This document shows, piece after piece, positions 5,110-43,099 of a stretch of DNA of 46,208 nt. The stretch is from NCBI RefSeq assembly GCF_004010195.1, contig NC_057719.1, forward strand, positions 3,429,740-3,475,947, in the 5' to 3' direction. The translations under genes and the position numbers were made by a program. Positions within the stretch are counted from its first letter, which is position 1, and every line of letters begins with the position of its first letter. This DNA comes from Chiloscyllium plagiosum. Lineage: Eukaryota. The notes beneath the pieces were generated by a model. It saw nothing but the letters and a program-made list of their open reading frames with translations, ran no database searches and was not told the origin of the DNA.

Positions 5110-5121
5110 AGTGGCACTTAC

Positions 5122-5379
5122 TTCTCAATCTCAGCCCACATCACTTCCTTCTCATTCCGGAGGGCTGAGAGTTCGACAGTGGCTGCGATGAATTCTGACT
5201 GGAGGCTTGTCAGCTCTGTCAGAGCGTTTTCCAAAGAACAGGACTCATCCATTGGCTTGACGCCTGCCTGGGCCCCGTTCCGCAAGACGAGAATTCGGGC
5301 TGTGCTTCCTTTGCCCAGTGACTGCTCCAAGGCCTCACTAGTGCAGTCCAGCATGCTTATTCCATTGACCTCGATTAAC
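5122..5379 (-). CDS. Internal exon: C-terminal half of PDZ domain plus coiled-coil
   Basis: Acceptor ttgtgtttgtgctccag|G and donor GAGAA|gtaagt; 258 nt, phase 2 to 2. Translates LIEVNGISMLDCTSEALEQSLGKGSTARILVLRN...LENALTELTSLQSEFIAATVELSALRNEKEVMWAEIE. Confidence 0.85.
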
Positions 5380-5479
5380 CTGGAGCACAAACACAACAAT
5401 GGCAGCCATTCTCACCCAGACAAACTTACAGCAAGTAGCTCACACGCTGATGATATCATTGCAACCAGATACTCCCGAT

Positions 5480-13240: not shown

Positions 13241-14249
13241 TGTGCTAAATGACTTTTTAACCATCCTGTGTCCTTATGATGCAACTTTCAAAGAACTATG
13301 TGCCTGCACTCCTAGGTCTCGCTGTTTGAGAACACTACCCAGGGCCCTATCATTAATTGTACAAGTTCTGCCCTTGTTCATCTTACCAAAATGTAACACC
13401 TCACATTTTATCCAAATTAAATTCTACCAGCCACTCCTTAGCCCATTGGTCCAATTGATCAAAATCCCTTTGTAATCTTAGATAGCCTTCTTCACAATCG
13501 ACTACATCACTAATTTTGGTGTCGTCCACAAAATTATTAACCATGGTTCCTATATTGTCATCCAGATTGTTTATATAAATGACAAATAAAAGTGGACCCT
13601 GTACCGATTCCTGCGAAATATCACTGGTCGGAGGCTGAAAAACAGCCCTCCACCACCACCCTCTGCCTCCTGCCATGAAGCCAACGTTTTATCCTCACCC
13701 TGAATCCCACGTGATCTAACTTTACAGAAGCATTGCTCAGTATGATTTATGGAAATGACAGGGATCAAATGAACTATTTAAATATGGGGGGGGGGAGGTG
13801 TTGAGTACTTTGGTAAGGGTGGTCATCATAAGGTTTACATTATTTAATGGAGGAAAGGAAAGAATAAGCTGAAGTAGAATTTCTAAATTGGAATGTGGGT
13901 TAAAACAAGAGGGAGGAGAGCTAACTGAAGGGATTCCCTCCTCCAATCAGCTTTACACATGGGAACAAACCACTGGATTGTAGAATAATGACTGTGACAG
14001 TCGCCTTCAGGAAAATATCAAGTTATGTTCTCATCAGCCTGGTCAGAGGTTTAATTACACATTACTGCAACGGGTGGGGCATAAACCTGGCTCTCCTAGC
14101 CCACAGGGACATTACCACTACACCACAAGCAATCCTTGAGGTACTGTATAAGGACATGGTTCATGACATTTGTGGTAGGTGTGGTTTTAGAAGTAATAAC
14201 CAGGCAAATAGACATGAGCAAGGTCTTGGGGAGGTTTGAGCCAGGAAGG

Positions 14250-16689: not shown

Positions 16690-17293
16690 GGGCATGGTGT
16701 TTGCCTTTATTGGTCAGAGTATTGAGTACAGGTGTTGGGAGGTCATGTCATGATTGTACAGGACATTGGTGAGGCCACGTTTGGAATACTGGATTCAATT
16801 CCAGTCTCCATTCTATAGGAAGGATGTTGCGAAATGTTAAAGGCTTCAGAAAAGATTTACAAAGATGTTGCCCGGGTTGGAGGATTTGAGTTATAGGGGC
16901 TGTTTTCCCTGAAGCGTCTAAGGCTTTGGGGTGACCTTATAGAGGTTTATAAAATCATGAGGGGTATGGATAGAGTAAATAGACAAGGTCTTTTCCCCAG
17001 GGTGGAGTAGTCCAGAACTAGAAGGCATAGGTTTAGGATGAGAGGGGAAAGTTTTAAAAAGGACCTAAGGGGCAACTTTTTCACGCGGAAGGTGGTGTGT
17101 GTATGGAATGAGCTGCCAGAGAAAGTGGTGGAGGCTGGTATAATTGCAACATTTAAAAGGCCTCTGGATGGGTATATGAATAGGAAGGGTTTGGAAGGAT
17201 ATGGGCCAAATGCTAGGTTAGGATATGTGGTTGGCATGGATGAGTTGGACTGAAGGGGCTGTTTCCATGCCGTACATCGCTATGACTCTATGA
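16690..17293 (+). mobile_element. CR1 LINE 3' part
   Basis: LYRTLVRP.LEY..QF, GDLIEVYKIM and FFTRKVVCVWNELP, with a (ctatgact) tail. Confidence 0.9.
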
Positions 17294-17991
17294 CGCACCA
17301 GAGACTCCAGGCGCCCCTTGAGTTCATGTTTCTGCAGCTTGTTCATTCAGATCATATATAATGTCCACATTTCCCCACATATCACAAGGTAGATATTCTG
17401 TTTGGCTGTGCTGCCCTACCATAGCTTAGTTTTCTTTCGTACTGTTTGCTACTAATTGAAGATTAGGGAATAATTAGTTTACACCACTCCTGAGATATCG
17501 GTTTGATTATTTTTCCAACTCGGACATTGGAATACATGGTATGCTATCAAGGTTTGCTGATGATACCAGTTATCAGTCAGGTCACAACTGCAACATTACA
17601 TCCAGTCTGATTGCAAGGGTGAGGATGCAGAAGAGGTTTACCCGAATTGTTCCAGTAATGAGGGATTTTAGCGAGAAGATGGGAAAGGGGGATTCGACTG
17701 AAGTGCACAAGATGGTGAGAATTCAAACTCAGTTTTAGAAAGTCTCAATGGAAAAACCTGGCATCGGTAAAATTGACCATCATCTGTCGGACGATCAGAA
17801 AAACAAAAGGATCCACTGATACTCCCTACGGTGGGAGAGATGTTAAACATAGCTGGTCTGCCTCTGTGTGCAGTTCCATGGGGTTGGTAGTGATGTGCCT
17901 TTGAAGGAAGTCATTTCAATTCACTGAGAAAAGAGCAAGGGGTGACAAATAGAGAAGGAAGATCTATCAAGATGTTCTCGGGATAGGAGTA

Positions 17992-18185
17992 CAGTTGGTT
18001 CTGCTATAACCCGTGTTTCTTTAACACAAATTGGCTTTAACGCGATTGATGAATTTAGAGAATTTATTTGTAGAGTGCCAACTTTCCTTACCCATATTAG
18101 TTTAAATGGTGTAGCTATTGCGTGACTTTCTGATAATGCGAGATCACACGAGAATGGATCTATCACGTTATATCAGAGCCGACTG
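17992..18185. mobile_element. Non-autonomous Tc1/mariner-type (Tigger-like) MITE
   Basis: TA-cagttggttctgctataac ... gttatatcagagccgactg: 19-bp imperfect TIRs with 3 mismatches. Confidence 0.7.
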
Positions 18186-18194
18186 CTGTCCCAA

Positions 18195-18620
18195 GGGGAG
18201 GCTGTGGTGTGGCAGTAATGTCACTAGGCTAGTAATCCACAACTCTGCATTAATGTTCTGGAGACATGTGTTCAAATACTACAGTGAAGTGCTTGCTTTT
18301 GACTGGCACAGACTTGATAGGCCGAAGGGAAATATCTGTATTATAGATCTTTGTGACATTATAAGTCCTGCCATGGCAGATGGTGAAGTTTGATTTGGAT
18401 TAGAAAGTTAGTCTAATGGCAATTTATATAGCCGATAGTCAAATGTCTTAAAATCCCATATCATTCACTTATGTCCTTCAGGGAAGCAAATCTGCGTTCC
18501 TTATCAAGTCTGGCCTCTGTGTGACTCCAGACCCACAGCAGCTAGGTTGGTTTGTAACTGCCCCCTGGGGAATAAGGGACGGGCAATAAATAATGGCATT
18601 CCACGAATGAATTAAAAACA
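18195..18620 (+). mobile_element. Second tRNA-derived SINE family sharing the family-B LINE tail
   Basis: tRNA-like head, ccttcagggaag..tctggcct..gtgactccagaccc body and gggcaataaat..gaatgaat tail. A minus-strand copy lies at about 41380-41720. Confidence 0.65.
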
Positions 18621-19206
18621 AGCCCACGCATTTCCCTGTGAACTGGTCATACTGTGGGGTTTGGGGTTCGGCCTGGTTGCCCATTTGCCCTGCAAGTTGC
18701 TGATTCTTGTAAACTGTTGTTTACTGTTCACTGTTTGTTTGTATTTTTTACAGTTTGATAAAATTAAACAAAATTAAAAGCAAGTCCATTCAACCTTTCG
18801 AACCCGATTGGCTAATCATTGACACCAAATCTGAGTGTGCTGCACAGGGAAGCGGTGGAGACCAGAAATCTTACAACCTTTAAGAAATATTTGGATGAGC
18901 ACTTGAAATATCATAACATTGACGGATGTGGGACAAGTGCATGAAACTGGGATTAGTGCACTTGTAGTGGTAGTTATTGTCAGTGCACACTCAATGGGCC
19001 AAAGGGTCTTTGTTACGATCTATGACGCTATGAGTCTAATGGATATCTCAACTCCATTGATAAGTTTTGATCTAGATCTTTTAATACCTGTCCCCAGCAA
19101 AACACCATCGCACTCAACCGTGAAACTCTCAAGGGCTAAGAACGGGCAATAAATACCTACCTTGCCAGTGGTGGCAGAATGAACAATCTACAGTAAATAG
19201 TCTCAC

Positions 19207-19375
19207 CAGGTTTCACTGAATGAAGTACAAAGAGCTTGGATGTACCTGGAGGTTGTTCACCAGCAGGAGGGTTTTCACCCGAGAATACTGTTCCTTCAAC
19301 TGAATTAAAACCAGCTTCTGTTGAACAAAGTGCAGCTCCAGAATGGCTCCTTCGACAGATGCTCTGGTTGAGCTC
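19207..19375 (-). CDS. Probable internal exon; frame and donor ambiguous
   Basis: Acceptor ctctctatgtgtttag|G. One reading is phase 0 ELNQSICRRSHS...VKP to the donor G|gtgaga (19207). The other is phase 2 RSSTRASVEGAILELHFVQQKL...NLQ to the donor |gtacat (19246). Confidence 0.6.
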
Positions 19376-19677
19376 CTAAACACATAGAGAGTTGACATAT
19401 GCATCATGGCCTTTGCAAACCCGGTTAGTGCTCTATCTGCCTTCCCCCACCCCAACCCTCACACCGTGCCAGGAGCTGATCGACACACAAAGCAATAATC
19501 TCAATTTGTTAACTTACACTCACATTTATATAGTGCCTGACATGGCTCCCGCACTCTGTAAAGTGCTATTCGAGTACATTTTTTTTTAATGAGTCACCTT
19601 GTAATTTAACAAACAGAACAACCAATCAGAGTGCAGTGAAATCCCATCATGTGATAATGACCAGATGGCCTGCTTAT

Positions 19678-19985
19678 ATTATATTCTCTACAGCGTGGAA
19701 ACAGGCCCTTTCGCCCAACAAGTCCACACCAACCCTCCGAAGGATAACCCACCCAGACCCATTTCCCTCTGACTAATTTTCCGGACACTACGGGCAATTT
19801 CCCACAGCCACTCCAGCTAACTTGCACATGTTTAGAGTGTGGGAGGAAACCGGAGCACCCGGAGGAAACCCACACAGATACGGGGAGAATGTGCAAACTC
19901 CACACAGACAGTCACCCGAAACTGAAATCGAACCCGGGTCCCTAGCACTGTGAGGCAGCAGTGCTAACCACTGAGCCACTGTGCT
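19678..19985 (-). mobile_element. HE1-type SINE
   Basis: Full head, core and tail. Confidence 0.9.
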
Positions 19986-20663
19986 GTACTCGTTGTGTCA
20001 ACCTCCTGATGGGGGTGTCTCTGCCTGACCCACCCTGCAGCTAGGAATGCCAATGTGCCATCTCATGTGAAGAAAGGCGTTATTTCAAGTGGAGCCGAGC
20101 CTGTGACATTAGAGAACAAATCAGTGGATCAGAACAAAACCTATCCAGATCAATGATTCCGGATGGTGGGGGGTGTTTGGAGAAACTTGAGAAAGTCATG
20201 ACAGAAGGAGAAAGTAAGGACTACAGATACTGGATAGGNNNNNNNNNNNNNNNNNNNNNNNNNNNNNNNNNNNNNNNNNNNNNNNNNNNNNNNNNNNNNN
20301 NNNNNNNNNNNNNNNNNNNNNNNNNNNNNNTGGTGGTGGTGGGGGGGCTGCTGCCAATGAGATTGGGTGTCGGGGTTGGGGGTTCTGGGGTTTGTGCAGT
20401 CAGTCAATAGCAATGTCTATGATCAGCCAAAGATGTGGACGGGGTTAACTGTCTGATTGGGAAGGTCAAGGTCAGGGGATCCTTCTCACGTCACTCCAGG
20501 AATATGGCCCATGGTCAGCCCTGCACCTAGAGGATTGTGGGACTGTCAGTCAGGGCAATGTTGAGAGGTCTGGTCAGGCAGCAGGTATGGCTCATCTATC
20601 CAGGTCAGTCGGAGGTGGGGGGGGCGGGGGGGGTGGGTGCAGCAGAATGAGGCTCATTGCTGG

Positions 20664-21436
20664 TGAAGATCTAGACGCAGATTTGTCCAGCAACATGGAG
20701 GTTCAAAGCTTCTGTGTTGTTTCAATCTTTGCTGACTGGCAACAGGGTCAGTGGACTGGGGAGGGGGTGGGGGAACAGGAGTTGGCTTACCAGCCACTAG
20801 TGACTGCTCCTTTTGTTTCTGTTGGCGTTTTGCTCTAGCACATTCACGTTTGAGGACTTCAATAGATTTCATGACACCATCAGCTGTTAGTTCAATTCCC
20901 AATTTAGTGGCAATATGCTGCCATGAACATGAAACTGATTCTTTATGAGTTTCATCACAATATTGTCTCCACAGTCTAATTAGTTCCTTTGTCTTGGGAT
21001 ACCTGTTCCTTTGCCAAATCATTCGCTGCACTGATTTGATCAATTGAATACTCTTAAGGGTCACTGAGTGGCCACTGGTCATCACCCAATGCTTTATTTC
21101 GGGTGGCAGAAAGTTTTCGAAAGTCTTTGGATTTTTCCGGAAACTTCTCACATATTTTTACTAATGGTGAAGACGGACCTTCCGTCTTATCTATGTGATT
21201 ACCCATCTTAAAACAAACTTCTGTATCTCACAGAACAATTTAAGTGCCAATTTAAATAACGCCAATCCAACTGAATCGGAATTTCTCAGCTCTGAGAGGT
21301 TCACGACTCTCTCTCTCTTTCTCATTCTGCCTTATGTTATTAAACTGGTAACCTTGCTTTAAACAGACCGTACTCCGAGTGATTCTTTTGACCGATCTCG
21401 AGCCAAGAGGCCCCTTTGGAGGGGTCTAGATCTTCA
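20664..21436 (-). mobile_element. Collapsed endogenous retrovirus-like element with integrase-type ends and a gag 5' fragment
   Basis: TGAAGATCTAGAC ... GTCTAGATCTTCA forms a 13-bp perfect inverted repeat with TG..CA ends. It is flanked by CTGG at 20660-20663 and 21437-21440. Confidence 0.75.
20730..21206 (-). pseudogene. gag: Frameshifted retroviral Gag matrix plus Pro-rich region
   Basis: ATG at 21206: MGNHIDKTEGPSSPLVKICEKF...DQWPLS, then a frameshift to TLKSIQLIKSVQRMIWQR..LIRLWRQYC...KPTPVPPPPP. The MG start, SPL, WPxxGT-like motif and later W resemble gamma/epsilon-retroviral matrix. Confidence 0.65.
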
Positions 21437-22164
21437 CTGGGACTTTGGAGCCACTATTGCAGGACCAGGGAAGCGTAGGGAGTGAAGGCAGGAGTCTGTG
21501 ATGCAGAGGCATGGCAGAGGGGGAGATATTTGATGATGTGGTGGTGGGGGGGTGGGTGGTGGAAGTTGTCATGCACAGGAGGACATAGGAGGACGTAGGT
21601 GATAGGCCGTCACTGCCACTGGGATCTTGATGGGTTGGCATTGTGCACCATGACTGTCCAAACTATAGTGACAGGGCTCAGGTTGTGGGAATTCAGTCAG
21701 GATAGAGTGCCCAGGGAGTACTGGATAGAAGGGGACATGAAGGTTTGGTTGAGGCCTGATGATTAAGGCAAGGCTGGTATTTATAGAGTTGAATATAACC
21801 TGTTCTGAGTTCCATGATATGTTGAGTGCCAAGTGCAACCTGTGATTGGAAAATGGCTGTGACTATGCGTGGAGTCAGTGTTAATTTGCTGACCAAAAAC
21901 CTGGGCTCCACTTATGAGCGATAGAAGGCCCTTCAGGGGCTGTACCAATACAGTACTTGAAAAGTAAAGTTTAGAATCATTTGCAATTATATTATTGTAC
22001 ATTGCATGATGATACAATTGCAAAAGTGTGTTGGTTACCAATGCTGTTCACCACATCATTGATCTTTACAAATTGAAGACAGCCATTTCTGTGAAATAGA
22101 AGTCAAAAAACGAGTGAGCTTAAAAGAGGCACTGCACCCTACAAAGCTCACATCCTTCTCGGTT

Positions 22165-22651
22165 CCTTTGCAAATAAAATCAGTCTGACTCCAAGCTGAG
22201 ACACAAGCAGCCTCAAAATGAGGCCTCACTCCTACAATGGGGAGAAAGTGATCAGTCTGATTCCAAGTTGAGACACAAGCAGCCTCAAAATGAGGCCTCA
22301 CTCCTACAATACATTGGCTGACCTGAGATGTCACCTTTATACTGATAAAAGCTTAAGTTATCTCAGGACAGTGACTTGAAAGAAATTCTGGGATTTGCAC
22401 ATTAATCAATCGAAATCTGCATCCCCATTCTAACTGATTAAAGACTGAATAGCTGTCCAGGTTTGTTCAAGACATGAGCCTTTGATCTTTCACTACAAAT
22501 TCGGTGTCTGATGTATCCTCTCTCACTAGCTGGCTGAGGAAGGAGCAGCGCTCTGAAAGCGCGCAGTTTCAAATAAACGTGTTGGACTATAACCCGGATC
22601 GTGTGAGTTTTGACCTTGTCCACCCCAGTCCAACACTGGCACCTCCACATC
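22165..22651 (+). mobile_element. Penelope-like family B 3' region with decayed hammerhead
   Basis: ctgaggaaggagcagcgctctgaaagc...aaataaacgtgttggactataac...caccccagtccaacactggcacctccacatc, the same tail as 10930-11052. Confidence 0.7.
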
Positions 22652-22654
22652 TAG

Positions 22655-23530
22655 GGTACATGGAGGCACAAAACTGATTCCCTCTCATTTCAGTCCTGTG
22701 GTTAAGAAGGCTTGTCTTTATCGTGGATTATAAGAGCAGGGAGGTCTAGGTTGGAGTTTGTACAGCACCTTGGCTCGGCTGGAGTAATGTGTGCAATTCT
22801 GGTCCCCACATGATAGGAAAGACGTGATTGCACAGGAGGGGGTGCAGAGGAGATTCATCAGGATGCTGCCTGAGATGGAACGGCCCAGCGATGAAGACAG
22901 TCCTGATAAGCTTGGGTTGTTTTCCTTGAACAGAGAAGGTTGAGGGGGGGACTTGATAGAGGTGTGGAAGGTTAGAGGGACATGGACAGGGGGAGTAGAA
23001 AACAGCCCCTGCCCTCAGTCAAAGTTTCATTAAAAAGGGGGAACACTTTCAGGTGAATGGAAGGAAATTGAGAGGGGATTTGAGGCAAAGCATTCTCCCA
23101 TTTACCACCCCCTGAGAAAAAGAAAGGAAATGACATCACCAACCCAAGGAAACCTAAACACATCAATAGAAAGTGGGCTACATCACCAGTGCTTCATCTG
23201 GAGATTCACTGAAAATGTTATCTAGTATGGTGACGAAACGTCTGAAAATGAACCTTCCAGCTCAGCAAGCAAACCTACATTCAGAACCTCAACATGAGCT
23301 ACAAATCTTCTCAGAATTCACAAGATTTCTCATTCAGAGGGCGGTGGGGGTCTGGAATACTGTGCCTGGGAGGGGCATTAAGGTGGGAAACCTCAAAGCC
23401 CTTAAAAAGCACTTGGATGAACACTTGAAGTGTCATAACATTCAAGGCTATGGGTTAAGTGCGGGAATGTGGGACCGGTGAAGTTGGTAATATTTTTTGA
23501 GGAACACACTTGATGGGCTGAAAGGCCATG
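22655..23530 (+). mobile_element. CR1 3' part interrupted by a Penelope-like family C fragment (about 23105-23320)
   Basis: CVQFWSPHDRKDVIA.EGVQRRF and FLIQRAVGVWNTVP. The insert contains tca-CTGAAAA-tgttatctagtatggtgac-GAAACGTC-tga, a hammerhead with one core change. Confidence 0.8.
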
Positions 23531-24727
23531 TCAGTACCAAGGGCTTTACAGGAATGGTTCCTGGGGAACAAGGGTTACCAGAGCTGACAACACCTTGACT
23601 GGCCCGAGGCCCAGATACAGTACAACCCATTCTCCAACCAGGGAGGACGCAACAAGCCTCCTGAGGTTCCACTAGTTGGAGCAGCCTGGTCAGCCTTGCA
23701 GTCCACCCCAGACACAGCACACTGCTTAATGTACAACACGAGGGGATGTGACTGAGGCTGACAAGCTGGCACAGTCTGAGCAGAAAGGTGACCGCATTCA
23801 GCCTGAGGATCATCGCCCTCAGTGGGGTCAAGCCGGAGCAGGGTGAGTGCCACATACCAGCCCGGGGTTAGCTGGCAGGAGCTCGGGGCTGGGGCTGATG
23901 ATGACCCATTGACTGTAACAGTGCTCCGTGCACAAGCTGTTTGCTTCTGTTCCCAGGGGCAAATGCGGCTACAGTTTAATTGATTTCTGCTGGCTTTCAG
24001 CTCTTGTGAATGAAAGGGAACATTTTGAGGTAATTGCTATTGTAATCCCACATTGATCAGCACTAAGGTGCTGGCGTGCAGCAGGAACTGTGGAACAGGA
24101 ACCAGTGACTTAAAGACATTCGTATGAGGGGATACGGCTAAGGACTGGGATATGCTGTCTGGCTTGACGCTAAATCAGTGATAGATGACAAATTATACTG
24201 CTGGCTCTGCAGTTAGGACCATCTCTGAGCTCTGTCCATGTGTTACTGGTTTGAGTTTGCTGTGCCACTGTGATCTCATGTGAAGGGCAGCTCCACTCTG
24301 TCAATGTTTGATGGGTGCATGGTGAGACTTCCAAGATGGCGGCAGGGCCAGGGATTACTGGCATTCACCTGACTGGGTTTGAACAGTGTTTTATAGGCTG
24401 ACGGAGGTTCAGTTTTTTTTCAGTCTGGAGGAGCCTGCTGAAGCCTGTTCTTCTTGCCCCTCATGTTTCTAAAGCACCCTCGTTATGTTCCAGTGTGAGG
24501 CCTGATCACCATCACGAAAGTGTACAGCACTGAGCAAGCTGCATCTTCCAAGACCCCAGAGAAAACTTCTCATATCGGGTGGTCTGGTTAGATGAGTCAG
24601 TAACAGATTGACAGCAGTCTGAACGTTCCCACCTTGTCCTTTTCTTTCCTTCAAGATCTCAACATCATTGGCCAAAAGTGTTTATTCCCACAGTGAATCA
24701 TTGCAGACTGAAATCTGTTTCGTTTTC

Positions 24728-25500
24728 CGTGTGTGTGTGTGTGAGAAAGAGAGAGAGTGTGTATGTGTCCATTTGTGTGTGTGAGAGAGTGTGTGTGTGT
24801 GAGAAAGTGCATGAGTGTGTGTCTGAGAGAGTGTGTGTGTGTGTGAGAGAGAGAGAGAGTATGTGAGTGTGTGTGTCTGTCTGAGTGTATGTGTGAGAAA
24901 GAGTGTGTGTGAGTGTGTGTGTGTGTCGGTGTGTGTGTGTGTCTGTCTGTGTGTCTGTGTGTATGTGTGAGAGAGAGAGTGAGAGAGTGTGTGTATGTGA
25001 GAGAAAGTGCANNNNNNNNNNNNNNNNNNNNNNNNNNNNNNNNNNNNNNNNNNNNNNNNNNNNNNNNNNNNNNNNNNNNNNNNNNNNNNNNNNNNNNNNN
25101 NNNNNNNNNNNNNNNNNNNNNNNNNNNNNNNNNNNNNNNNNNNNNNNNNNNNNNNNNNNNNNNNNNNNNNNNNNNNNNNNNNNNNNNNNNNNNNNNNNNN
25201 NNNNNNNNNNNNNNNNNNNNNNNNNNNNNNNNNNNNNNNNNNNNNNNNNNNNNNNNNNNNNNNNNNNNNNNNNNNNNNNNNNNNNNNNNNNNNNNNNNNN
25301 NNNNNNNNNNNNNNNNNNNNNNNNNGTCTGTGTGAGAGAGAGTGTGCGTGTATGTGTCAGTTTGTGTGTGTGTGTCTGTCTGTGTGTATGTGTGAGTGTC
25401 TGTGTGTGAGAGAGTGTGTGTGTGTGTGAGAGTGAGAGAGTGTGTGTGTGTGCGAGAGAGCATATGTGTGTATGTGTGTGTATTTGCCTGTGTGTATGAT
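24728..25500. repeat. Compound (GT)n/(GA)n microsatellite spanning a gap
   Basis: Seen directly in the sequence. Confidence 0.97.
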
Positions 25501-26969: not shown

Positions 26970-29900
26970 GACTCATGGTGGTGATGGTGAGGATGGGTTC
27001 TCAGTGGGGTCTGTGTCCGGTGTGGTCTCATGGTGGTGATGGTGAGGATGAGTTCCCGGTTGGGTCTGTGTCTGGTGAAGAATCATGGTGGTGATGGTGA
27101 GGATGGATTCCCGGTGGGGTCTGTGTCCGGTGAAGACTCATGGTGGTGATGGTGAGAATGGATTCCCGGGATGGTGAGAATGGATTCCCGGTGGGGTCTG
27201 TGTCCGGTGAAGGCTCATGGTGGTGATGGTGAGGATGGGTTCCCAGTGGGGTCTGTGTCCAGTGTGGTCTCATGGTGGTGATGGGGAGGATGAGTTCCCG
27301 GTGGGGTCTGTGTCCGGTGAAGAATCATGGTGGTGATGGTGATGGTGAGGATGGATTCCCGGTGGGGTGTGTGTCTGGTGCAGACATTGTGGTGATGGTG
27401 AGGATGGATTCCCGGTGGGGTCTGTGTCCGGTGAAGACTCATGGTGGTGATGGTGTGAAAGGGTGAGTTCCGAATGGGGTCCGTGTCTGGTGAAGGCTCA
27501 TGGTGGTGATGGTGAGGATGGGTTCCTGGTGGGGTCTGTTTCAAGTGAAGGCTCATGGTGGTAATGGTGAGGATGGATTCGCGGTGGGGTCTGTGTCTGG
27601 TGAAGACTCATTGTGGTGATGGTGAGGATGGGTTCTCGGTGGGGTCTGTGTCCGGTGTGGTCTCATGGTGGTGATGGTGAGGACGGGTTCCTGGTGGGGT
27701 CTGTGTACGGTGAAGACTATTGTAGTGATGGTGCAGATGGGTTCCCGGTGGGGTCTGTGTCCGGTGTGGTCTCATGGTGGTGATGGTGAGGATGCGTTCC
27801 TGGTGGGGTCTGTGTCTGGTGAAGGCTCATTGTGGTGATGGTGCGGATGGGTTCCTGGTGGGGCGTGTGTCTGGTGTGGACCCATGGTAGTGATGGTGAG
27901 GATAGTTTCCCGGTGGGGTCTGTGTCCGGTGAAGGCTCATGGTGGTGATTGTTAGGATGAGTTCCGAATGGGGTCCGTGTCTGGTGAAGGCTCATGGTGG
28001 TGATGGTGAGGATGGGTTCACGGTGGCGTCTGTGTCCTGCATGAACGCATGGTGGTGATGGTGAGGATGGCCTTCCGGTGGGGTCTCTGTCCGGTGAAGG
28101 CTCATGGTGGTGATGGTGGAGATGAGTTCCCGGTGGGGTCTGTGTCTGGTGAAGACCCATGGTGGTGATGGTGAGGATGGATTCATGGTGGGGTCTGTTT
28201 ACGGTGTGGGCTCTTGGTGGCGATGGTGTGGATGGGTTCTCGATGGGTCTGTGTCTGGTGTGGGCTCTTGGTGCTGATGGTGAGGATGGGTTCCCGGTGG
28301 GATCTGTTTCCCGCGTGAACACATGGTATTGAAGATGAGGATGCGTTCTCGGTGGGGTCTGTGTCCGGTGTGGTCTCATGGTGGTAATAGTGAGGGTGGG
28401 TTCACGGTGGGTCTGTGTCCAGTACCAACTCATGGTGGTGATGATGAGGATAGGTTGCCAGTTGGGTCTGTGTCCGGTGAAGGCTCATGGTGGTGATGGT
28501 GAGGATGAGTTCCAGGTTGGTCTGTGTCTGGTGTGGTCTCATGGTGGTGATGGTGAGGATGGGTTCTCGGTGGGGTCTGTGTCCGGTGAAGAATCATGGT
28601 GGTGATGGTGAGGATGGGTTCCCGGTGGGGTGTGTGTCTGGTGCAGACTCATTGTGGTGATGGTGAGGATGGATTCCCGGTGGTGTCTGTGTCCCGTGTG
28701 AACGCATGGTGGTGATGGTGAGGATGGATTCCCGGTGGGGTCTGTGTCCGGTGAAGGCTCATGGTGGTGATGGTGAGGATGGGTTCCTGGTGTGGTCTGA
28801 ATCCAGTGAAGGTTCATGGTGGTGATGGTGAGGATGGGTTCCCGGTGGGGTCTGTTTCCCGCGTGAACACATGGTGTTGAAGATGAGGATGGGTTCTCGG
28901 TGGGGTCGGTGTCTGGTATGGACTCATGGTGGTAATAGTGAGGGTGGGTTACCGGTGGGTCTGTGTCCAGTACCGACTCATGGTGGTGATGATGAGGATG
29001 GGTTGCCAGTGGGGTCTGCGTCCGGTGAAGGCTCATGGTGGTGATGGGGAGGCTGAGTTCTCAGTTGGGTCTGTGTCTGGTGTGGTCTCATGGTGGTGAG
29101 GGTGAGGATGGGTTTCCAGTGGTGTCTGTGTCTGGTGCGGACTCATCGTGGTGATGGTGAGGATGCATTCCCAGTGGGGTCTGTGTCCGGTGAAGACTCA
29201 TGGTGGTGATGGTGAGGATGGATTCTCTGTGTCCGGTGTGGTCTCATGGTGGTGATGGTGAGGATGAGTTCCTGGTGGGGTCTGTGTCCGGTGAAGACTC
29301 ATGGTGGTGATGGTAAGGATGAGTTCCCGGTGGGGTCTGTGTCTGGTGAAGACTCATTGTGGTGATGGTGAGGATGGGTTCTCGGTGGGGTCTGTGTCTG
29401 GTGAAGACTCATTGTGGTGATGGTGAGGATGGTTCCCCGATGGGGTCTGTGTCTGGTGAAGACGCATTGTGGTGATGGTGAGGATGGGTTCTCGGTGGGG
29501 TCTGTGTCTGGTGAAAACTCATTGTGGCGATGGTGAGGATGGGTTCTCGGTCGGGGTCTGTGTCTGGTGAAGACTCATTGTGGTGATGGTGAGGATGGGT
29601 TCTCGGTGGGGTCTGTGTCTGGTGAAGACTCATTGTGGTGATGGTGAGGATGGTTCCCCGGTGGTGTCTGTGTCTGGTGAAGACTCATTGTGGTGATGGT
29701 GAGGATGTCTGGTGAAGACTCATTGTGGTGATGGTGAGGATGGGTTCTCGGTGGGGTCTGTGTCTGGTGAAGGCTCATGGTGGTGATGGTGCGGATGGGT
29801 TCTCGGTGGGGTCTGTGTCTGGTGAAGACTCATTGTGGTGATGGTGAGGATGGTTCCCCGGTCGGGTCTGTGTCCAGTGAAGGCTCATGGTGGTGAAGGT

Positions 29901-32900
29901 GAGGATGGGTTCCCCGTGGGGTCTGTGTCCGGTGAAGGCTCATGGTGGTGACGGTGCGGATGAGTTCCCGGTGGGTCAGTGTCTGATGTGGTCTCATGGT
30001 GGTGATGGTGAGGATGTGTTCCTGGTGGGGTCTGTGTCCGGTGAAGACTCATGGTGGTGATGGTGAGGATGGGTTCTCGGTGGGGTCTGTGTCTGGTGAA
30101 GACTCATTGTGGTGATGGTGAGGGATGGATCCCCAGGTGGGTCTGTGTTCAGTGAAGGCTCATGGTGGTGATGGCGAGGATGAGTTCCCGATAGTTCGGT
30201 GTCTGGTGAAGGCTCATTGTGGTGATGGTGAGGATGGGTTCTCGGTGGGGTCTGTGTCTGGTGAAGACTCATTGTGGTGATGGTGAGGATGGTTCCTCGG
30301 TCGGGTCTGTGTCCAGTGAAGGCTCATGGTGGTGAAGGTGAGGATGGGTTCCCTGTGGGGTTTGTGTCCGGTGAAGGCTCATGGTGGTGACGGTGCGGAT
30401 GAGTTCCCGGTGGGTCAGTGTCTGGTGAAGGCTCATTGTGGTGATGGTGCGGATGGGTTCCCCGTGGGGTCTGTGTCCGGTGAAGGCTCATAGTGGTGAT
30501 GGTGAGGATGTGTACCCGGTGCGTCGGTGTCTGGTGAAGGCTCATTGTGGTGATGGTGCAGATGGGTTCCCGGTGGGGCGTGCGTCTGGTGCGGACCCAT
30601 GGTGGTGATGGTGAGGATGGTTCCCCGGTGGGGTCTGTGTCCAGTGAAGACTCATGGTGGTGATTGTGAGGATGGGTTCCTGGTGGGGTCTGTTTCAAGT
30701 GAAGGCTCATGGTGGTAATAGTGAGGATGGATTCGCGGTGGGGTCAGTGTCCGTTGAACGTCACGGTGGTGATGGTGAGGATCTGTCCCTGGTGGTGTCT
30801 GTGCCCGGTGCGGACTCATTCTGGTGATGGTGAGGATGGGTTCTTGGTGGGGCCTGTGTCCGGTATGGACACATGGTTGTGATGGTGAAGATGGTTTCCC
30901 GGTGGGGTCTGTGTACAATGTGAACTCATGGTGTTGATGGTGAGGATGGGTTCCCTGTGTGGTCTGTGTATGGTGATGATTCATGGTGGTGGTGGTGACG
31001 ATGGGTTCCCAGTGGGTCTATGTCCGGTGAACAGTCATGGTGGTGATGGTGAGGATGAGTTGCCAGTGGGGTGTGTGTCCGGTGAAGGCTCATGATGGTG
31101 ATGGTGAGCATGGTTTCGCACTGGGATCTGTGCCCGGTGTGGTCTCATGGATGTGATTAGATTACATTACAGTGTGGAAACAGGCCCTTCGGCCCAACAT
31201 GTCCACACCGCCCCGCCGAAGCGCAACCCACCCATACCCCTACCTTTACCCTTTGCCAATTCACCTGACCTGCACATCTTTGGACTGTGGGAGGAAACCG
31301 GAGTACCCAGAGGAAACCCACGCAGACACGGGGAGAATGTGCAAACTCCACATAGACAGTTGCCCGAGGCTGGAATCGAACCTGAGTCCCTGGTGCTGAG
31401 AGGCAGCAGTGATAACCACTGAGCTGCCATCAGTGATGGTGAGGATGAGTTCCCAGTGGTGTCTGTGTTTGGTGCGGACTCATATTGGTGATAGTGGGGA
31501 TGTGTTCCTGGTGGGGACTGTGTCGAGTGAAGGTTCATGGTGGTGATGGTGAGGATGAGTTCCCGTGGTGCCTGTGTCCGGTGAAGGCTCATGGTGGTGA
31601 TGGTGAGGATGGGTTCCAGGTGGGGTCTGTGTCTGGTGTGGTCTCATGGTGGTGATGGTGAGGATGAGTTCCAGGTGGGGTCTGTGTCTGGTGAAGGCTC
31701 ATGGTGATGATGGTGAGAATGGGTTCCCGGTGGGGTCTGTGTCCAGTGAAGACTCATGGTGGTGATGGTGAGGATGGGTCCCCGGTGGGGACTGTGTCTG
31801 GTGTGGTCTCATGGTGGTGATGGCAAGGATGGGTTCCCAGTGGGGTCTGTGTCCGGTGAAGGCTTATGGTGTGGATGGTGATGATGAGTTCCCGGTGGGG
31901 TCTGTGTCCGGCGTGGACTCATGGTGGTGATGGTGAGGATCAGTTCCCGGTGGGGTCTGTGTCTGATGTGGACTCATGCTGGTGATGGTGAGAATCAGTT
32001 CCCGGTGGGGTCTGTGTCCGGTGTGGGTTCATGTTGGTGATGGTGAGGATGAGTTTCTGGTGGTATCCATGTCCAGTGAAGACACATGGTGGTGATGGTG
32101 AAGATGGGGTCCCGGTGGGGTCTGTGTCCGGTGTAGACTCATGGTGGTGATGGAGAGGATGGGTTCTCCATAGGGTCTGTGTCCGATGCTGTCTCATGGT
32201 GGTGATGGTGAGGATGGGTTCTCGGTGCGGTCTGTGTCCGGTGAAGGCTCATGGTCGAGATGGTGAGGATGGGTTCCCGAAGGGGTGTGTGTTCGGTGGC
32301 GACTCATGGTGGTGATGGTGAGGATGAGTTCCGGGAGGGGTCTGTGTCCGGTGAAGGCTCATGATGGTGATGGTGAGGGTGAGTTCCAGGTGGGGTCTGT
32401 GTCCTGTGTCGACTCATGGTGGTGATGGTGAGGGTGGGTTCCCGGTGGGGTCTGTGTCCGGTGTGGACTCATGGTGGTGATGGTGAGGATGGGTTCCTGG
32501 TGGGGTCTGTGTCCAGTGAAGAATTATGGTGGTGATGGTGAGTGTGGGTTCTCGGTCGGGTCTGTGTCTGGTGAAGACTCATGGTGGTGATGGTGAGGAT
32601 GGGTTCTCGGTGGGGTCTGTGTCTGGTGAAGACTCATGGTGGTGATGGTGAGGATGGGTTCCCGGTGGGGTCTGGGCCCAGTGTGGTCTCATGGTGGTGA
32701 TGGGGAGGATGAGTTCCCGGTGGGTGCTGTGTCCAGTGAAGACTCATGGTGGTGGGTGGTGATGATGAGTTCCCAGTGAGGTCTGTGTCCTGTGTGAACC
32801 CGTGGTGGTGATGGTGAGGATGGGTGTCCGGTGAAGGCTCATGTTGGTGATGGTGAGGATGGGTTCCCGGTGGGGTTTGTGTCCGGTGAAGGATCATGGT

Positions 32901-35900
32901 GGTGACGGTGAGGATGATTTCCAAGTTAGGTCTGTGTCCAGTGTGGTCTCATGGTGGTGACGGTGAGGATGAGTATCCGGTGGGATCTGTATCCGGTGTG
33001 GTCTCATGGTGGTGATGGTGAGGATGAGTTCCTGGTGGGGTCTGTGTCCGGTGAAGACTCATGGTGGTGATGGTGAGTATGAGTTCCCGGTGGGGTCTGT
33101 GTCTGGTGCAGACTCATGGTGGTGATGGTGAGGATGGGTTCCCTGTGGGGTCTGTGTCCAGTGAAGGCTCATTGTGGTGATGGTGAGGATGGGTGCCCGG
33201 TGGGGTCTGTGTCCGGTGAAGACTCATGGTGGTGATGGTGAGTATGAGTTCCCGGTGGGGTCTGTGTCTGGTGCAGACTCATGGTGGTGATGGTGAGGAT
33301 GGGTTCCCTGTGGGGTCTGTGTCCAGTGAAGGCTCATTGTGGTGATGGTGAGGATGGGTGCCCGGTGGGGTCTGTGTCCGGTGAAGTGGGTTCCCGGTGG
33401 GGTCTGTGTCCGGTGTGGTCTCATGTTGGTGATGGTGTGGATGGATTCTCAGTGAGTCTGTGTCTGGTGCAAACACATGGTGGTGATGGTGATATTGAGT
33501 TCCCGGTGGCGTCTGTGTCCAGTGAAGACTCATGGTGGTGTTGGTGAGGATGGGTTCTCGGTGGGGTCTGTGTCTGGTGAAGACTCATTGAGGTGATGGT
33601 GAGGATGGTTCCCCGGTGGGGTGTGTGTCCAGTGAAGGCTCATTGTGGTGATGGTGAGGATGGGTGCCCGGTGGGGTCTGTGTCCGGTGCAGACTCATGG
33701 TGGTGGTGGTGAGGATGGGTTCCTGGTGGGGTCTGTTTCCGGTGTGAACTCGTGGTGGTGATGGTGTGGATGGGCTCTCAGTGAATCTGTGTCTGGTGCA
33801 AACACATGGTGGTGATGGTGANNNNNNNNNNNNNNNNNNNNNNNNNNNNNNNNNNNNNNNNNNNNNNNNNNNNNNNNNNNNNNNNNNNNNNNNNNNNNNG
33901 ATGAGTTCCTGGTGGGGTCTGTGTCCGGTGAAGACTCATGGTGGTGATGGTGAGTATGAGTTCCCGGTGGGGTCTGTGTCTGGTGCAGACTCATGGTGGT
34001 GATGGTGAGGATGGGTTCCCGGTGGGGTCTGTGTCCGGTGTGGACTCATGCTGGTGATGGTGAGAATCAGTTCCCGGTGGGGTCTGTGTCCGGTGTGGTC
34101 TCATGTTGGTGATGGTGTGGATGGGTTTCCGTTGTTGTCTGTGTCCGGCGTGGACTCATGGTGGTGATGGTGAGGATGGGTTCCCGGTGGGGTCTGTGTC
34201 CGGTGTGGACTCATGCTGGTGATGGTGAGAATCAGTTCCCGGTGGGGTCTGTGTCCGGTGTGGTCTCATGTTGGTGATGGTGTGGATGGGTTTCTATTGT
34301 TGTCTGTGTCCAGCGTGGACTCATGGTGGTGATGGAGAGGATGGGTTTTTGGTGGTATCTGTGTCCAGTGAAGACACATGGTGGTGATGGTGAAGATGGG
34401 TTCCCGGTGGGGTCTGTGTCCGGTGTAGACTCATGGTGGTGATGGAGAGGATGAGTTTTTGGTGGTATCCGTGTCCAGTGAAGACACATGGTGGTGATGG
34501 TGAAGATGGGTTCCCGGTGGGGTCTGTGTCCGGTGTAGACTCATGGTGGTGATGGAGAGGATGAGTTCTCCGTGGGTTCTGCGTCCGATGCTGTCTCATG
34601 GTGTTGATGGTGAGGATGGGTTCTCGGTGCGGTCTGTGTCCGGTGAAGGCTCATGGTCGAGATGGTGAGGGTGGGTTCCCAAAGGGGTGTGTGTTCGGTG
34701 GCGACTCATGGTGTTGATGGTGAGGATGGGTTACTGGTGGTGTCTGTGTCCAGTGAAGGCCCATGGTGGTGATGGTGATGATGGGTTCTCTGTGTGGTCT
34801 GTGTCCGGTGAAGACCCACGGTGGTGATGGTGAGGATGTTCACGGTGAAGTCTGTGTCCCGCGTGAACTCATGGTGGTGATGCTGAGGATGGGTTCCCCG
34901 TGGTATCTTTGTCCAGTGTGGGCTCTTGGTGGTGATGGTGAGGATGGGTTCCCGGTGGGGTCTGTGTTCGGTGTGGACTCATGGTTCTGATGGTGAGGAC
35001 GCGTTCCGGTGGTGTCTGCGTCCCATGTCGACCCATGATGGTGATGGTGAGGATGTGTTCCCGGTGGTGTCTATGTCCGGTGAAGACTCATGGTGGTGAT
35101 GGTAAGGATGGGTTCACGGTAGAGTCTGTGCCCGGCGAAGGCTCATGGTGGTGATGGTGAAGATGTTTTCCCGGTGGGGTCTGTGTCCGGTGTAGACTCA
35201 TGGTGACGATGGTGAGGATGGGTTCCTGGTGGGGTCTGAGACCGGTGAAGCCTCATGGTCACAATGGTGAGGATGGGTTCCCGGTGGGGTCTGTGTACAG
35301 TGAAGACTCATGGTGGTGGTGGTGAGGATGGATTCCCGGTGGGGTGTGTGTCCGGTGTAGGCTCATTGTGGTGATGGTGAGGAAGGGTTCCCGGTGGGAT
35401 GTGTGTCTGGTGCAGGTTCATTGTGGTGATGGTGAGGAAGGGTTCCCGGTGGGGTCTGTGTCTGGTGAAGGCTTGTGTTGGTGATGGTGAGGATGGGTTC
35501 CCGGAGGGGTCTGTGTCTGGTGAAGGCTCATGGTGCTGACGGTGAGGATGAGTTCCCGGTAGGGTCTGTGTCCGGTGCAGACTCATGGTGGTGATGGTGA
35601 GGATGGTTCCCCGGTGGGGTGTGTGTCCAGTGAAGGCTCATTGTGGTGATGGTGAGGATGGGTGCCCGGTGGGGTCTGTGTCCGGTGCAGACTCATGGTG
35701 GTGGTGGTGAGGATGGGTTCCTGGTGGGGTCTGTTTCCGGTGTGAACTCGTGGTGGTGATGGTGTGGATGGGCTCTCAGTGAATCTGTGTCTGGTGCAAA
35801 CACATGGTGGTGATGGTGAGAATGAGTTCCCGGTGGGGTCTGTGTCCGGTGAAGGTTCATGCTGGTGATGGTGAAGATGGGTTCCCAGTGGGGTCAGTGT

Positions 35901-37933
35901 CCGGTGAAGGCTCATGGTGGTGATGGTGAGGATGAGTCCCTGGTGGGGTCTGTTTCTGGTGCAGGCTCATGGTGTTGAAGGGGAGGATGAGCTCCTGTGG
36001 GGTCTGTGTCCAGTGAAAACTCATGGTGGTGATGGTGAGGATGGGTTCCCGGTGGGGTCTGTTTCCGGTGAAGGTTTATGGTGTTGATGGTGCAGATGAC
36101 TTCCTGGTGGGGTCTGTGTCCGGTGTGGACTCATGGTGGTGGTAGTTTGGATGTGTTCCCGGTGGGGTCTGTGTCTGGTGTGGTCTCATGTTGGTGATGG
36201 TGTGGATGGGTTTCCGTTGTTGTCTGTGTCCGGCGTGGACTCATGGTGGTGATGGTGAGGATGGGTTCCCGGTGGGGTCTGTGTCCGGTGTGGACTCATG
36301 CTGGTGATGGTGAGAATCAGTTCCCGGTGCTGTCTGGTGAAGGTTCGTGTTGGTGATGGTGAGGATGGGTTCCCGGTGGGGTCTGTGTCCGGTGAAGGCT
36401 CGTGTTGGTGATGGTGAGGATGGGTTCCCGGAGGGGTCTGAGTCTGGTGAAGGCTCATGGTGATGACGGTGAGGATGAGTTCCGGTGGGGTCTGTGTCCG
36501 GTGCAGACTCATGGTGGTGATGGTGAGGATGGTTTCCCGGTGGGGTCTGTGTCTGGTATGGTCTCATGGTGGTAACGGTGAGGATGAGTTTCCGGAGTGG
36601 TCTGTGTCCGGTGAAGGCTCATGGTGGTGATGGTGAGAATGGGTTACCGGTGGTGTCTGTGCTTGGTGCGGACTCATAGTGGTGATGGTGGGGATGTGCT
36701 CCTGGTGGGGACTGTGTCTGGTGTGGTCTCATGGTGGTGATGGTGAGGATGAGTTCACAGTGGGGTTTGTGTTCGGTGTGGTCTCATGGTGGTGATGGCG
36801 AGGATGAGTTCACGGTGAGGTCTGTATCTGGTGTAGTCTCATGGTGGTGATGGTGAGGATGAGTTCCCGGTGGGGTCTGTGTCCGATGTGGTCTCATGGT
36901 GGTGATGGTGAAGATGGGTTCCCCGTGTTGTCTGTGTCTGGTGTGGACGCATGGTGTTGATGGTGAGGATGGGTTCCCAGTGAGGTGTGTGTCAGGTGTG
37001 GTCTCATGGTGGTGATTGGGCGGATGAGTTACCGGTGGGGTCTGTGTTTGGTGCAGACGCATGGTGGTGATGGTGAGGATGGGCTCCCGGTGGGGTCTGT
37101 TTCTGGTGAAGGCTCATGGTGTTGGTGGTGAGGGTAACTTCCCGGTGGTGTCTGTGTCCTGCGTGAACCCATGGTGGTGATGGTGAGGATGCGTTCCCAG
37201 TGGGGACTGTGTCCTGTGTGGACTCATGGTGGTGAGGATGGGTTCTCAGTGAGTCTGTGTCCGATGCAAACCCATGGTGGTGATGGTGGGGATGGGTTCC
37301 CGGTTGGGTCTGTGTCTGGTGAAGACTCATGGTGGTGATGATGAGGATGGATTCCCGGAGGGGTCTGTGTCCGGTGAAGACTCATGGTGGTGATGGTGAG
37401 GACGGGTTCACAGTGGTGTCTGTGTCTTGTGTGTGCTTTTGGTGGTGATGGTGAGGATGGATTCCCGGTGGGGTCTGTGTCTGGTGCAGACTCATGGTGG
37501 TGATGGTGAGGATGGATTCCCGGTGGGGTCTGTGTCCGGTGAAGGCTCATGGTGATGATAGTGAGGATGGGTTCCCAGTGTGGTCTATGTCCGGTGAGGA
37601 CCCATGCTGGTGATGGTGTGGGTGGGTTCTCGGTGGGGTCTGTTTCCGGTGTGGTCTCATGGTGGTGATCGTGAGGGTGGGTTCCCGGTGGGTCTGTGTC
37701 TGGTGTGGTCTCATGGTGAGGATGGCTTCCCAGTGGTGTCTGTGTCTGGTGCGGTCTCATGGTAGTGATCGTGACAATGGGTTCCCGGTGATATCTATGT
37801 CCGGTGAAGACTCATGGTAGTGATGGTGAGGATGGGTTCCTGGTGGGGTGTGTGTCCGGTGAAGACTCATGGTGGTGATGGTGAGGATGTGTTCCTGGTG
37901 TGTTCTGTGTCTGGTGAAGACTCATGGTGGTGA
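26970..37933. repeat. About 11-kb, 55-bp minisatellite array (roughly 190 units)
   Basis: Consensus ctcatggtggtgatggtgaggatgggttcccggtggggtctgtgtccggtgaaga. Period measured as 55 from 29243 to 29298. Confidence 0.97.
31152..31430 (-). mobile_element. HE1-type SINE inserted in the minisatellite
   Basis: Head, core and tail present; the array resumes at about 31433. Confidence 0.92.
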
Positions 37934-38365
37934 TTAGATTTGATTCTCTACATTGTGGCAACAGAGGAGAAGGTGAGGTCTGCAGATGCTGGAGATCAAA
38001 GTTGAAACTTTATTGCTGGAACAGCATAGCAGGTCAGGCAGCATCCAGGGAACAGGAGATTCGACGTTTTGGGCACAGGCCCTTTGGCCCAACACGTCCA
38101 CACCACCCCTCCGAACTGTAACCCACCCAAACCCATTCCCCTACCCTATATTTACCCCTGACTAATGCACCTAACACTGTGGACAATTTAGCACGGCCAA
38201 TTCACCTGATCTGCACATCTTTGGATTGTGGGAGTCAACCGGAGCACCCGGAGGAAACCCACGCAGACACGGGGAGAGCGTGCAAACTCCACACATACAG
38301 GCGGGAAATGAATCCAGGACCCTGGTGCTGTGAGGCAGCAGTGCTAACCACTGAGCCACTGCGGC
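37933..38365 (-). mobile_element. HE1-type SINE with a nested Penelope family A tail (about 37965-38074)
   Basis: The SINE tail is interrupted by ggagaaggtgaggtctgcagatgctgg...gacgttttgggca. Confidence 0.85.
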
Positions 38366-38384: not shown

Positions 38385-38840
38385 TATCCATTGACCTTAT
38401 CCTTACAGATGTCGATATTGTTGTCACTGCTCATCTACTCAGTTTCTGGTCAATGGTAACCCCCAGCAGGTTGATTGTGGGGGATTCAGTGATGGTAACT
38501 CCATTGAATATCAAGGGGTGGTGGTTAGATGGTCTCTTTTTGGAGGTGGTCTATGCATTTGGACTGCTTCAGTATCTGAGGAGTCACAAATGGTGCTGAA
38601 CATTGTGCAATCATCAGCGAACATCCCCACTTCTGACCTTATAATAGAAGGAAGGTCATTGATGAAGCAGCTGAAGATAGTTGGGTCTCGGACACCACCC
38701 AGAGGGACTCCTGCAGAGATGTCCTGGAGCTGAGGTGCCTGACCTTACAACAACCACAACCATCTTCCTTTCTGCCAAGTATGACTCCAACCGGCGGAGA
38801 GTTTGCCCCCGAATTCCCATTGATTCCAGTTTTACTGAGG
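38385..38840 (-). mobile_element. LINE RT fragment (CR1/L2 group)
   Basis: The minus strand encodes AGVPLGGV..P..FSCFINDLPSIIRSEVGMFADDCT. Confidence 0.8.
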
Positions 38841-39571: not shown

Positions 39572-39838
39572 TTAGAATCATAGAATGGAATCCCTACAGC
39601 GCAGAAGCAAGCCATTCAACCCAATGAGTCCACACCGACTCTCTGAAGAAATTCCCACTCAGACTCACACCCCTGTAACCCTGCATTTCCCATGGCCAAT
39701 CTACCCAACCTGCACATCTCTGGACTATGGGAGGAAACCCATGCAGAGATAGGAAGAACGTGCAAACTCCACTCAGGCAGTTGCCCAAGGGTAGAATTGA
39801 ACCCGGGTCCCTGGTGCTGTGAGGCAGCAGTGCTAACC
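39572..39838 (-). mobile_element. HE1-type SINE with truncated head
   Basis: Core and tail present. Confidence 0.85.
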
Positions 39839-40437
39839 AAGCTTTCTTGGATGCTTCATGTGGACGCACTGGTTACAAAGGCCCAACAACGTCTCGTCTT
39901 CCTCAGGAAGCTGAGGAAATTTGGCATGAGGGTGAACACCCATGCCAACTTTTATAGATGCGCCATCGAGAGCATTCTGTCTGGGTGTATCACTCCCTGG
40001 TATGGCAACTGTACCATTCAAGATTGGAGACGGTTACAGAGAACGGTGAACTCGGCCCAGACAATCACAAAGGCCAACCTCCCATCTATAGAATCCATCT
40101 ACCAGGCCCGCGGTCAAGGAAAGGCCGCCAGCATTCTCAACGATCCATCCCACCCTGACAATGTTTTTCTACAGCATCTACCATCAGGGAGAAGGTACAG
40201 AAGCCTGAACACACACACCAGCCGGTTTCGGAACAGTTTCTACCCGACTGTTGTTAGATACTGAATGGACTCACAAACACTTAGCATTCGCCTGTGTTTT
40301 TGTTTTTGCCGCTGTTTACCTGTTATTTACTTATCGATGCTACTTTACTCTGGGATCTGCCTGTATTGCTCGCAAGACAAAGCTGTTTCCTGTGCCTCGG
40401 TACATGTGACAGTAAATTCAATTCAAATTCAAATTCA
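39839..40437 (+). mobile_element. Rex1/Babar-type LINE 3' end
   Basis: KAQQRLVFLRKLRKFG..FYRCAIESILSGCITPWYGNC..LPSGRRYRSL..RFRNSFYP, with an (AATTCA)n tail. Confidence 0.9.
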
Positions 40438-43098: not shown

Positions 43099-43099
43099 A

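Follow-up and report, generated by a model that had tools for sequence, protein, structure and literature searches.

A 773-bp shark endogenous retroviral insertion with inverted LTR tips that may derive from a U5–U5 reverse-transcription product

INTRODUCTION

In one study of deleted HIV proviruses, 61 of 395 had arisen by aberrant first-strand transfer with the junction in R or U5, an event that leaves the U3 terminus missing (PMC12657518). That study states that integration of such products can be demonstrated only where the ends are matched to their sites, and it suggests host repair or a CA nearby as the source of the missing end. Asymmetric LTRs and inversions are also known among HIV proviruses (PMC9278108). 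In vitro, PFV integrase can insert two U5 donors in concert, leaving a 4-bp duplication, and 16 bp of the end is enough for this (PMC2615609). Integration sites of XMRV/MLV follow the 4-bp consensus 5'-CTVB (PMC2857682), and endogenous retroviruses (ERVs) of sharks have been documented in the elephant shark (PMC4422223).

We analysed a 46,208-nt stretch of Chiloscyllium plagiosum DNA (hereafter the window; all coordinates are window positions) that contains a 773-bp element of retroviral origin. Like the defective HIV-1 proviruses of models A and B in PMC12657518, the element would derive from strong-stop DNA on a wrong internal site, with a junction in R and loss of the U3 terminus. Unlike those proviruses, it shows both ends and a duplication, and the missing end is seemingly a second, flipped U5. 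Two U5 ends and a 4-bp duplication would also liken it to the PFV U5 donors, except that the assay described in PMC2615609 used artificial, separate oligonucleotide donors whereas the element is one natural germ-line DNA. Its TG..CA ends and 4-bp duplication fitting 5'-CTVB resemble those of gamma-type MLV/XMRV (PMC2857682) and of shark CmiERV (PMC4422223). Unlike gamma-type proviruses, it is without a direct LTR pair, PBS, PPT, pol and env, and has no sequence link to a named virus. With solo LTRs, TRIMs and MITEs it shares a short, effectively non-coding body and TG..CA or inverted ends with a duplication; it differs from them in that 608 of its 773 bp are leader and gag, terminal direct repeats are absent and no copy series was seen among the matches listed. 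No natural integrant with two U5 ends was found in the open-access literature searched, and the sole match to 'U5-U5' concerned RNA pairing.

RESULTS

Ends of the element and target-site duplication

The features of the element, its flanks and the joints discussed below are as follows.

20660..20663, plus strand: left CTGG, fitting the 5'-CTVB consensus (PMC2857682)
20664..20676, minus strand: integrase-type tip of 13 bp whose reverse complement is, letter for letter, the U5 tip at 21424–21436
20677..20718, minus strand: R-side LTR piece of 42 bp in gag sense, about 117–158 nt from the U5 tip, as placed by contig depth, joints and loose ends
20719..21206, minus strand: 5' end of gag, about 162 codons, carrying a proline-rich stretch and a conserved helix-hairpin-helix block besides the predicted matrix domain; interrupted by a frameshift and truncated at 20719
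21207..21326, minus strand: last 120 nt of a retroviral leader, which include a purine-rich run of (GA)n
21327..21436, plus strand: LTR piece of 110 bp comprising the 3' part of R and U5, flipped relative to gag, with ATTAAA at 21339 and the U5 tip at its end
21437..21440, plus strand: right CTGG
21310–21436 (side 110, record 23), 21276–21436 and 21320–21419: joints in contigs of run X9, opposite strands

The inserted element extends from 20664 to 21436 (773 bp) and CTGG is present at both flanks. Its termini form a perfect TG..CA inverted repeat of 13 nt inside the duplication, or 14 nt when one base of the duplication is counted on each side, and the tip sequence occurs just twice in the whole window, even allowing 2 mismatches. 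We did not find a long direct repeat within the element. The window contains 131 perfect 13-mer inverted pairs with a spacing of 100–2000 nt, 11 of which begin with TG; the 20664–21436 element is the one pair that combines a TG start with a 4-bp flanking duplication. Sixty order-3 Markov simulations of the window yielded means of 2.3 inverted pairs and 0.12 with a TG start, and 0 with the duplication. We infer that the CTGG pair is a true target-site duplication. The coordinates and the chance test confirm the preliminary description of a 773-bp insertion with TG..CA inverted ends and a 4-bp CTGG duplication, and the reported lack of long direct repeats inside it held as well.

The flanks (20331–20663 and 21441–21900) are G-rich, look like decayed repeats and had low or zero depth in the aligned runs; neither has a second copy within the window. 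An empty site with a single CTGG was not present among 15 of the 17 contig joints, the flanks being poorly covered. Ten nucleotides of the left flank (20642–20651), 8 nt from the duplication, are an inverted match to 21321–21330 across the leader/R-U5 junction. This match could reflect chance or templated repair.

The remainder of the window is repeat-rich vertebrate DNA with LINE fragments that gave weak RVT_1 matches and a 55-bp satellite. The satellite (26970–37934) spans 11 kb with about 197 copies of the unit, 75% matches and a strong strand skew. Decayed LINE reverse-transcriptase fragments lie at 13404–13688, 38514–38744 and 39647–40261 (RVT_1, E = 1e-4 to 2e-4, together with an ALKBH8_N match at E = 1e-8), and CR1-like pieces are found at about 1940–2750, 16700–17290 and 42480–43100. 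On the minus strand, 5121–5400 is stop-free and host-exon-like, by eye PDZ-tail-like and then coiled-coil, and gave no Pfam match at E = 0.001. The element may lie within or near a host gene. No Rfam match was obtained in 17000–25000 and no tRNA was found in the window.

A frameshifted Gag matrix reading frame

The minus-strand reading frame starts with an ATG at 21206 and is frameshifted near 21057–21066. When the second frame was compared with 1.84 billion proteins, 5 matches reached E ≤ 0.001, and 4 of these are true relatives with 34–51% identity. The other, P0006 (E = 8.7e-4), was discarded as spurious on account of its repetitive sequence. The relative P0003 (XP_072335647.1) is a 302-aa protein of Scyliorhinus torazame annotated as an 'uncharacterized protein' with isoforms; it may be a gag that was co-opted, or else an ERV fragment that entered the annotation. 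The first frame of the element aligns to P0003 residues 1–46 (25 of 47 identical, 53%) and the second frame to residues 50–131 (34 of 82 identical, 41%). As the two frames match consecutive parts of P0003, we conclude that they belong to a single broken gene. A contig of run X2 (record 13) matches 20968–21171 across the frameshift with 0 differences; therefore the break is present in the DNA of that run too.

The intact relative P0008 was modelled together with 6 others (alignment of 7; short cluster members were excluded from alignment A3), yielding a pLDDT of 74.7. Comparison of this model with 48,161 chains placed matrix proteins in all of the top 5 rows: MoMLV (Z = 8.6, rmsd 3.0, 78 aligned), RSV twice (Z = 7.6), MPMV (Z = 6.3) and MMTV (Z = 6.2). 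HIV-1 and FIV followed in rows 8 and 10. A repeat of the fold comparison agreed, its top 6 rows being matrix proteins, and the MoMLV Z values ranged from 8.6 to 8.8; these matrix values are moderate, i.e. below 13, the caution level of the tool for helical folds. Foldseek gave no match at E ≤ 0.001 in PDB and BFVD. Because matrix proteins of four genera concentrate at the top of the comparison, the domain is N-terminal and the protein has an MG start, we regard the predicted assignment of the minus-strand frame to retroviral Gag matrix as secure. The frameshifted, matrix-like frame recognized in the preliminary description is thereby supported, both by the alignments to shark relatives and by the modelled fold of P0008.

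The predicted matrix fold also points to a retrovirus rather than Gypsy as the parent. It had been proposed that the ends were of retroviral or Gypsy type; the retroviral origin stands, and the matrix fold excludes Gypsy as the parent. Possession of a Gag with a predicted retroviral matrix fold, together with TG..CA ends and a duplication in the 4–6 bp range, identifies the element as ERV-derived. The myristoylation-type MG start and the proximity of the modelled fold to MoMLV (Z = 8.6–8.8) are MLV-like features, and the hints of a gamma/epsilon-like (class I) parent are confined to the rank of the matrix fold and the 4-bp duplication, the element containing no RT.

Pfam gave no match with a usable score for the reading frame or its relatives, and MADF (E = 0.04–0.05) was rejected; this shark Gag matrix family is unrecognised by Pfam. 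Sequence searches of PDB gave no match to the Gag family. Atlas searches were empty except for fungal DUF6532 (0.92, about 130 of 256 shared features), which was also rejected. Relatives longer than 302 aa were not found among 625 + 8000 candidates, which is weak evidence. When folded alone (pLDDT 65.5), the C-terminal half of the window's frame gave no match to matrix proteins, and its best match (Z = 6.1) was an unrelated protein. The most conserved block of the family corresponds to 20790–20935 on the minus strand (P0008 residues about 90–140), lies after the matrix core and was modelled as helix, short hairpin and helix. In structure comparisons this block matched helix-loop-helix proteins alone, with Z ≤ 4.7, which is not significant. 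In an X1 contig (record 2), the gag of a relative continues for 455 letters beyond 20781 in sequence unlike the window.

Two pieces of one LTR face each other in the element

Twenty public runs from three organisms contain part of the element. Four of 24 listed runs were aligned to 20500–21600 at 80% likeness, and the runs of organism C (share 0.15–0.18) were left out of the evidence. The contig matches listed comprise 24 of 919 pieces, 20 of 304 loose ends and 15 of 17 joints. Summed depth in X1/X2/X9, which is not a copy number, was 4865/1054/1369 over 20685–20721 and 10474/1008/2636 over 21351–21387, compared with 169–964/7–100/29–168 over gag and leader, i.e. the depth of the LTR pieces exceeds that of gag and leader several-fold to more than tenfold. 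Eight of the 15 listed joints link 20675–20681 to 21323–21343 on opposite strands, and these were seen in all four runs. The listed loose ends include ends at 21327, 20676–20679 and 20718; by eye, those before 21327 (16, 5 and 20 contigs) are the reverse complement of 20676–20700 plus five letters. From the joints and loose ends we conclude that the 42-bp and 110-bp pieces adjoin in the parent LTR. In other copies the 42-bp piece sits 5 letters upstream of the piece at 21327, and beyond 20718 these copies continue as LTR, not gag (25, 8 and 21 contigs and 6 RNA reads). The two pieces are neighbours in one abundant LTR and here face each other. The 5 letters between them in other copies include the four letters of the duplication, with a chance estimated at roughly 2–5%.

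On the plus strand, the element consists of the tip (13), the R-side piece antisense (42), gag antisense (488), the leader antisense (120) and R-U5 sense (110), which sum to 773 bp. A total of 165 bp derives from the LTR and 608 bp from leader and gag, while PBS, PPT, U3 beyond the tip and a direct LTR pair are absent. This partition changes two statements of the preliminary description: of what was taken as about 230 nt of leader, the contigs assign 120 nt (21207–21326) to the leader and 110 nt (21327–21436) to the flipped R-U5 of the LTR, and the label 'LTR-less' is inexact given the 165 LTR-derived bp. The view that the element is not a plain solo LTR was correct, as 608 bp are leader and gag and the R-side piece is flipped. 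The two direct LTRs with PBS and PPT inside of a canonical provirus are not found here, nor does one U3-R-U5 in order make up the whole length, as in a solo LTR, nor are there the short terminal direct repeats with PBS and PPT of a TRIM.

A plain plus-strand solo LTR with a chance antisense reading frame is ruled out by the contigs, the protein relatives and the matrix fold. We also considered a solo LTR of a subfamily whose U3 is the inverted leader-gag piece. Such an LTR would fit the size on the plus strand, the TG..CA ends with their 4-bp duplication, the ATTAAA and the true R-U5 end, but its R-side piece would be flipped and separated from the rest of R, and the listed contigs reaching 21327 from the right (16, 5 and 20 in X1, X2 and X9) all enter normal LTR and none the leader. 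We therefore consider this origin very improbable.

One X1 contig (record 1; 20668–20878, 0 differences) spans both left junctions, its first 6 letters being unaligned. With a depth of 15.9, close to the 12.9 of the left flank and the 9.1 of the right, this contig fits one locus. X2 contains near-identical gag pieces at depths of 6.3 and 10.5 with a depth of 0 on both flanks, a pattern that sits poorly with a single locus unless filtering or lack of coverage removed the flanks. No contig among the matches listed (24 of 919 pieces) crosses the leader/R-U5 junction at 21326/21327 or the flank junctions. This lack of contigs over the right inner and flank junctions, the five N gaps in the window (one of them 330 nt from the element) and the possibility that X1 is the window's own source sample would be compatible with an assembly chimera of repeat pieces bearing a chance duplication. 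Such a chimera is nonetheless extremely doubtful: X1 record 1 spans two junctions without a difference, the junctions share at most about 1 letter, which is too few for joining by an assembler, and perfect tips with a duplication arose in 0 of 60 simulations.

The same contigs bear on the earlier idea that the 773-bp unit belongs to a small non-autonomous, MITE-like family with inverted LTR tips that was copied as a unit. The element does have the terminal inverted repeats and duplication of a MITE-like element, X2 holds near-identical gag pieces, frameshift included, without flank depth, the first 6 letters of X1 record 1 depart from the element, and the matches listed are a fraction of all pieces and loose ends (24 of 919 and 20 of 304). 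Nevertheless, the joints, loose ends and pieces listed include no junction with another flank, the listed loose ends at 20676–20679, 20718 and 21327 all run on as intact LTR, and the depth of the junction-spanning contig (15.9) resembles that of the flanks (12.9 and 9.1). No look-alike was present in the other DNA windows scanned. A unit without U3, PBS and PPT could not undergo retroviral reverse transcription, and we know of no established route of excision by retroviral integrase. The idea thus received no positive support among the matches listed, and we judge such a family improbable. A variant in which rescue by a second strong-stop supplied two-U5 substrates, and the unit was then copied to further loci as a MITE-like family, appears slightly less probable still.

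Searches for the element elsewhere gave little. No RNA run containing the element was listed; from RNA run X21, about 2/100 of which was read, 17 reads aligned and none was at least 95% alike. DNA pattern scans of viral and metagenome contigs returned 5 loci, all chance matches of 19–22 nt, and a protein-guided scan of viral contigs gave 0 of 78. The R piece folds no better than shuffles (z = −0.04), and a TAR-like hairpin in R was rejected because the folding z was about 0 for all 3 pieces.

The right tip is the U5 end in relatives

Three of the 15 listed joints, all from X9, link 21419–21436 to the leader at 21276–21320 on opposite strands. X9 record 23 (633 nt) carries a 110-nt LTR piece upstream of the leader. 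Since the 21436 tip faces the leader in these X9 relatives, we conclude that the right tip is the U5 end of the parent 5' LTR, on the basis of three contigs of one run of another organism (organism B). ATTAAA lies 98–93 nt from the 21436 tip on the same strand. Fifteen X9 contigs end their match at exactly 21436 and continue in mixed sequence with an agreement of 0.41, as a mixture of many flanks and some primer-binding sites would. The consensus past 21436 starts with TT-TGG, which is PBS-like at that agreement of only 0.41. The parent order LTR, PBS, leader and gag is thus seen through the three X9 joints, with a hint of the PBS. Within the leader piece, relatives match up to 21318–21320 and then have unlike letters upstream (records 5, 9, 20, 21, 23 and 24).

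The left tip (20664–20676), letter-identical to the right one, is probably a second, flipped U5 tip. Perfect terminal inverted repeats are possible in MLV-type LTRs, and a parent with such a repeat of 13 bp may instead have supplied the left tip as its U3 tip. The parent U3 tip was sought in viral and metagenome contigs, which gave chance matches or none.

DISCUSSION

The explanation that we favour, with a probability of roughly 0.55, is that the element is a one-off, dead insertion of a faulty shark ERV DNA copy that carried a U5 end at both tips. Its plus strand would resemble a nascent minus strand that starts at the U5 tip and runs about 158 nt back into R. Under this explanation, tRNA-primed strong-stop DNA would have landed by error in gag, near codon 162, and not on the 3' R, an aberrant first-strand transfer, after which gag and then the leader would have been copied backwards. 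The distance of about 158 nt between the tip and the R-to-gag junction is of the order of a strong-stop DNA in length. The minus strand would have started as a second strong-stop DNA of 110 nt that primed in the leader on the nascent strand; alternatively, the first strand could have folded back on its own 5' part, giving the same product. The resulting linear DNA would have a U5 att site at each end but no U3, PBS or PPT, and its formation would require neither PPT priming nor a second-strand transfer. Concerted insertion of this DNA by integrase would then have produced the 4-bp duplication in a single step.

Before or after insertion, about 103 nt would have been deleted, which stripped most of the left 110-bp inverted arm. 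The missing stretch begins directly behind the att tip and reaches slightly beyond the would-be 110-bp inverted stem; we propose loss of one arm of the stem-loop as the cause of this gap. The preliminary description had suggested an aberrant reverse-transcription product, which is also the likeliest origin in our view. A simple doubly deleted provirus with its att sites in normal order does not agree with the present data: the end upstream of gag is a flipped U5, and both LTR pieces come from neighbouring R-U5 stretches.

Alternatively, an ordinary provirus on the plus strand, with its U3 tip at 20664 and its U5 tip at 21436, may have been rearranged by deletion and inversion after insertion. 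Gag would have been joined to the 3' R by deletion, and a segment would then have been inverted between a break in R and a resected break that extended from U3 position 13 to the leader. The inner breakpoints of the two LTR pieces are 5 letters apart, as from one double-strand break, and a single break with inversion explains this spacing more simply than an extra deletion step. The outer plus-strand order, from TG tip to R-U5 tip, would be normal, and the 4-bp duplication would call for no unusual substrate. What makes this history unlikely in our view is that it needs three coincidences in all: a parent whose U3 and U5 ends form a perfect inverted repeat of 13 bp, a break that spared no U3 past that repeat, and a separate deletion near the start of R. 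It must also accommodate the loss of all U3 beyond the tip, PBS and PPT.

The element is probably a rare fossil of a replication error rather than a new system, and its locus is almost surely inert. A shark family of Gag matrix proteins also comes to light here. Should both tips be U5, the element would be a natural record, with ends and site in view, of concerted integration without U3, PBS and PPT. A class of short U5-U5 defective proviruses would then be predicted in retroviral infections and in vector preparations, and PCR with 5'-LTR and 3'-LTR primers would be expected to miss or misread them.
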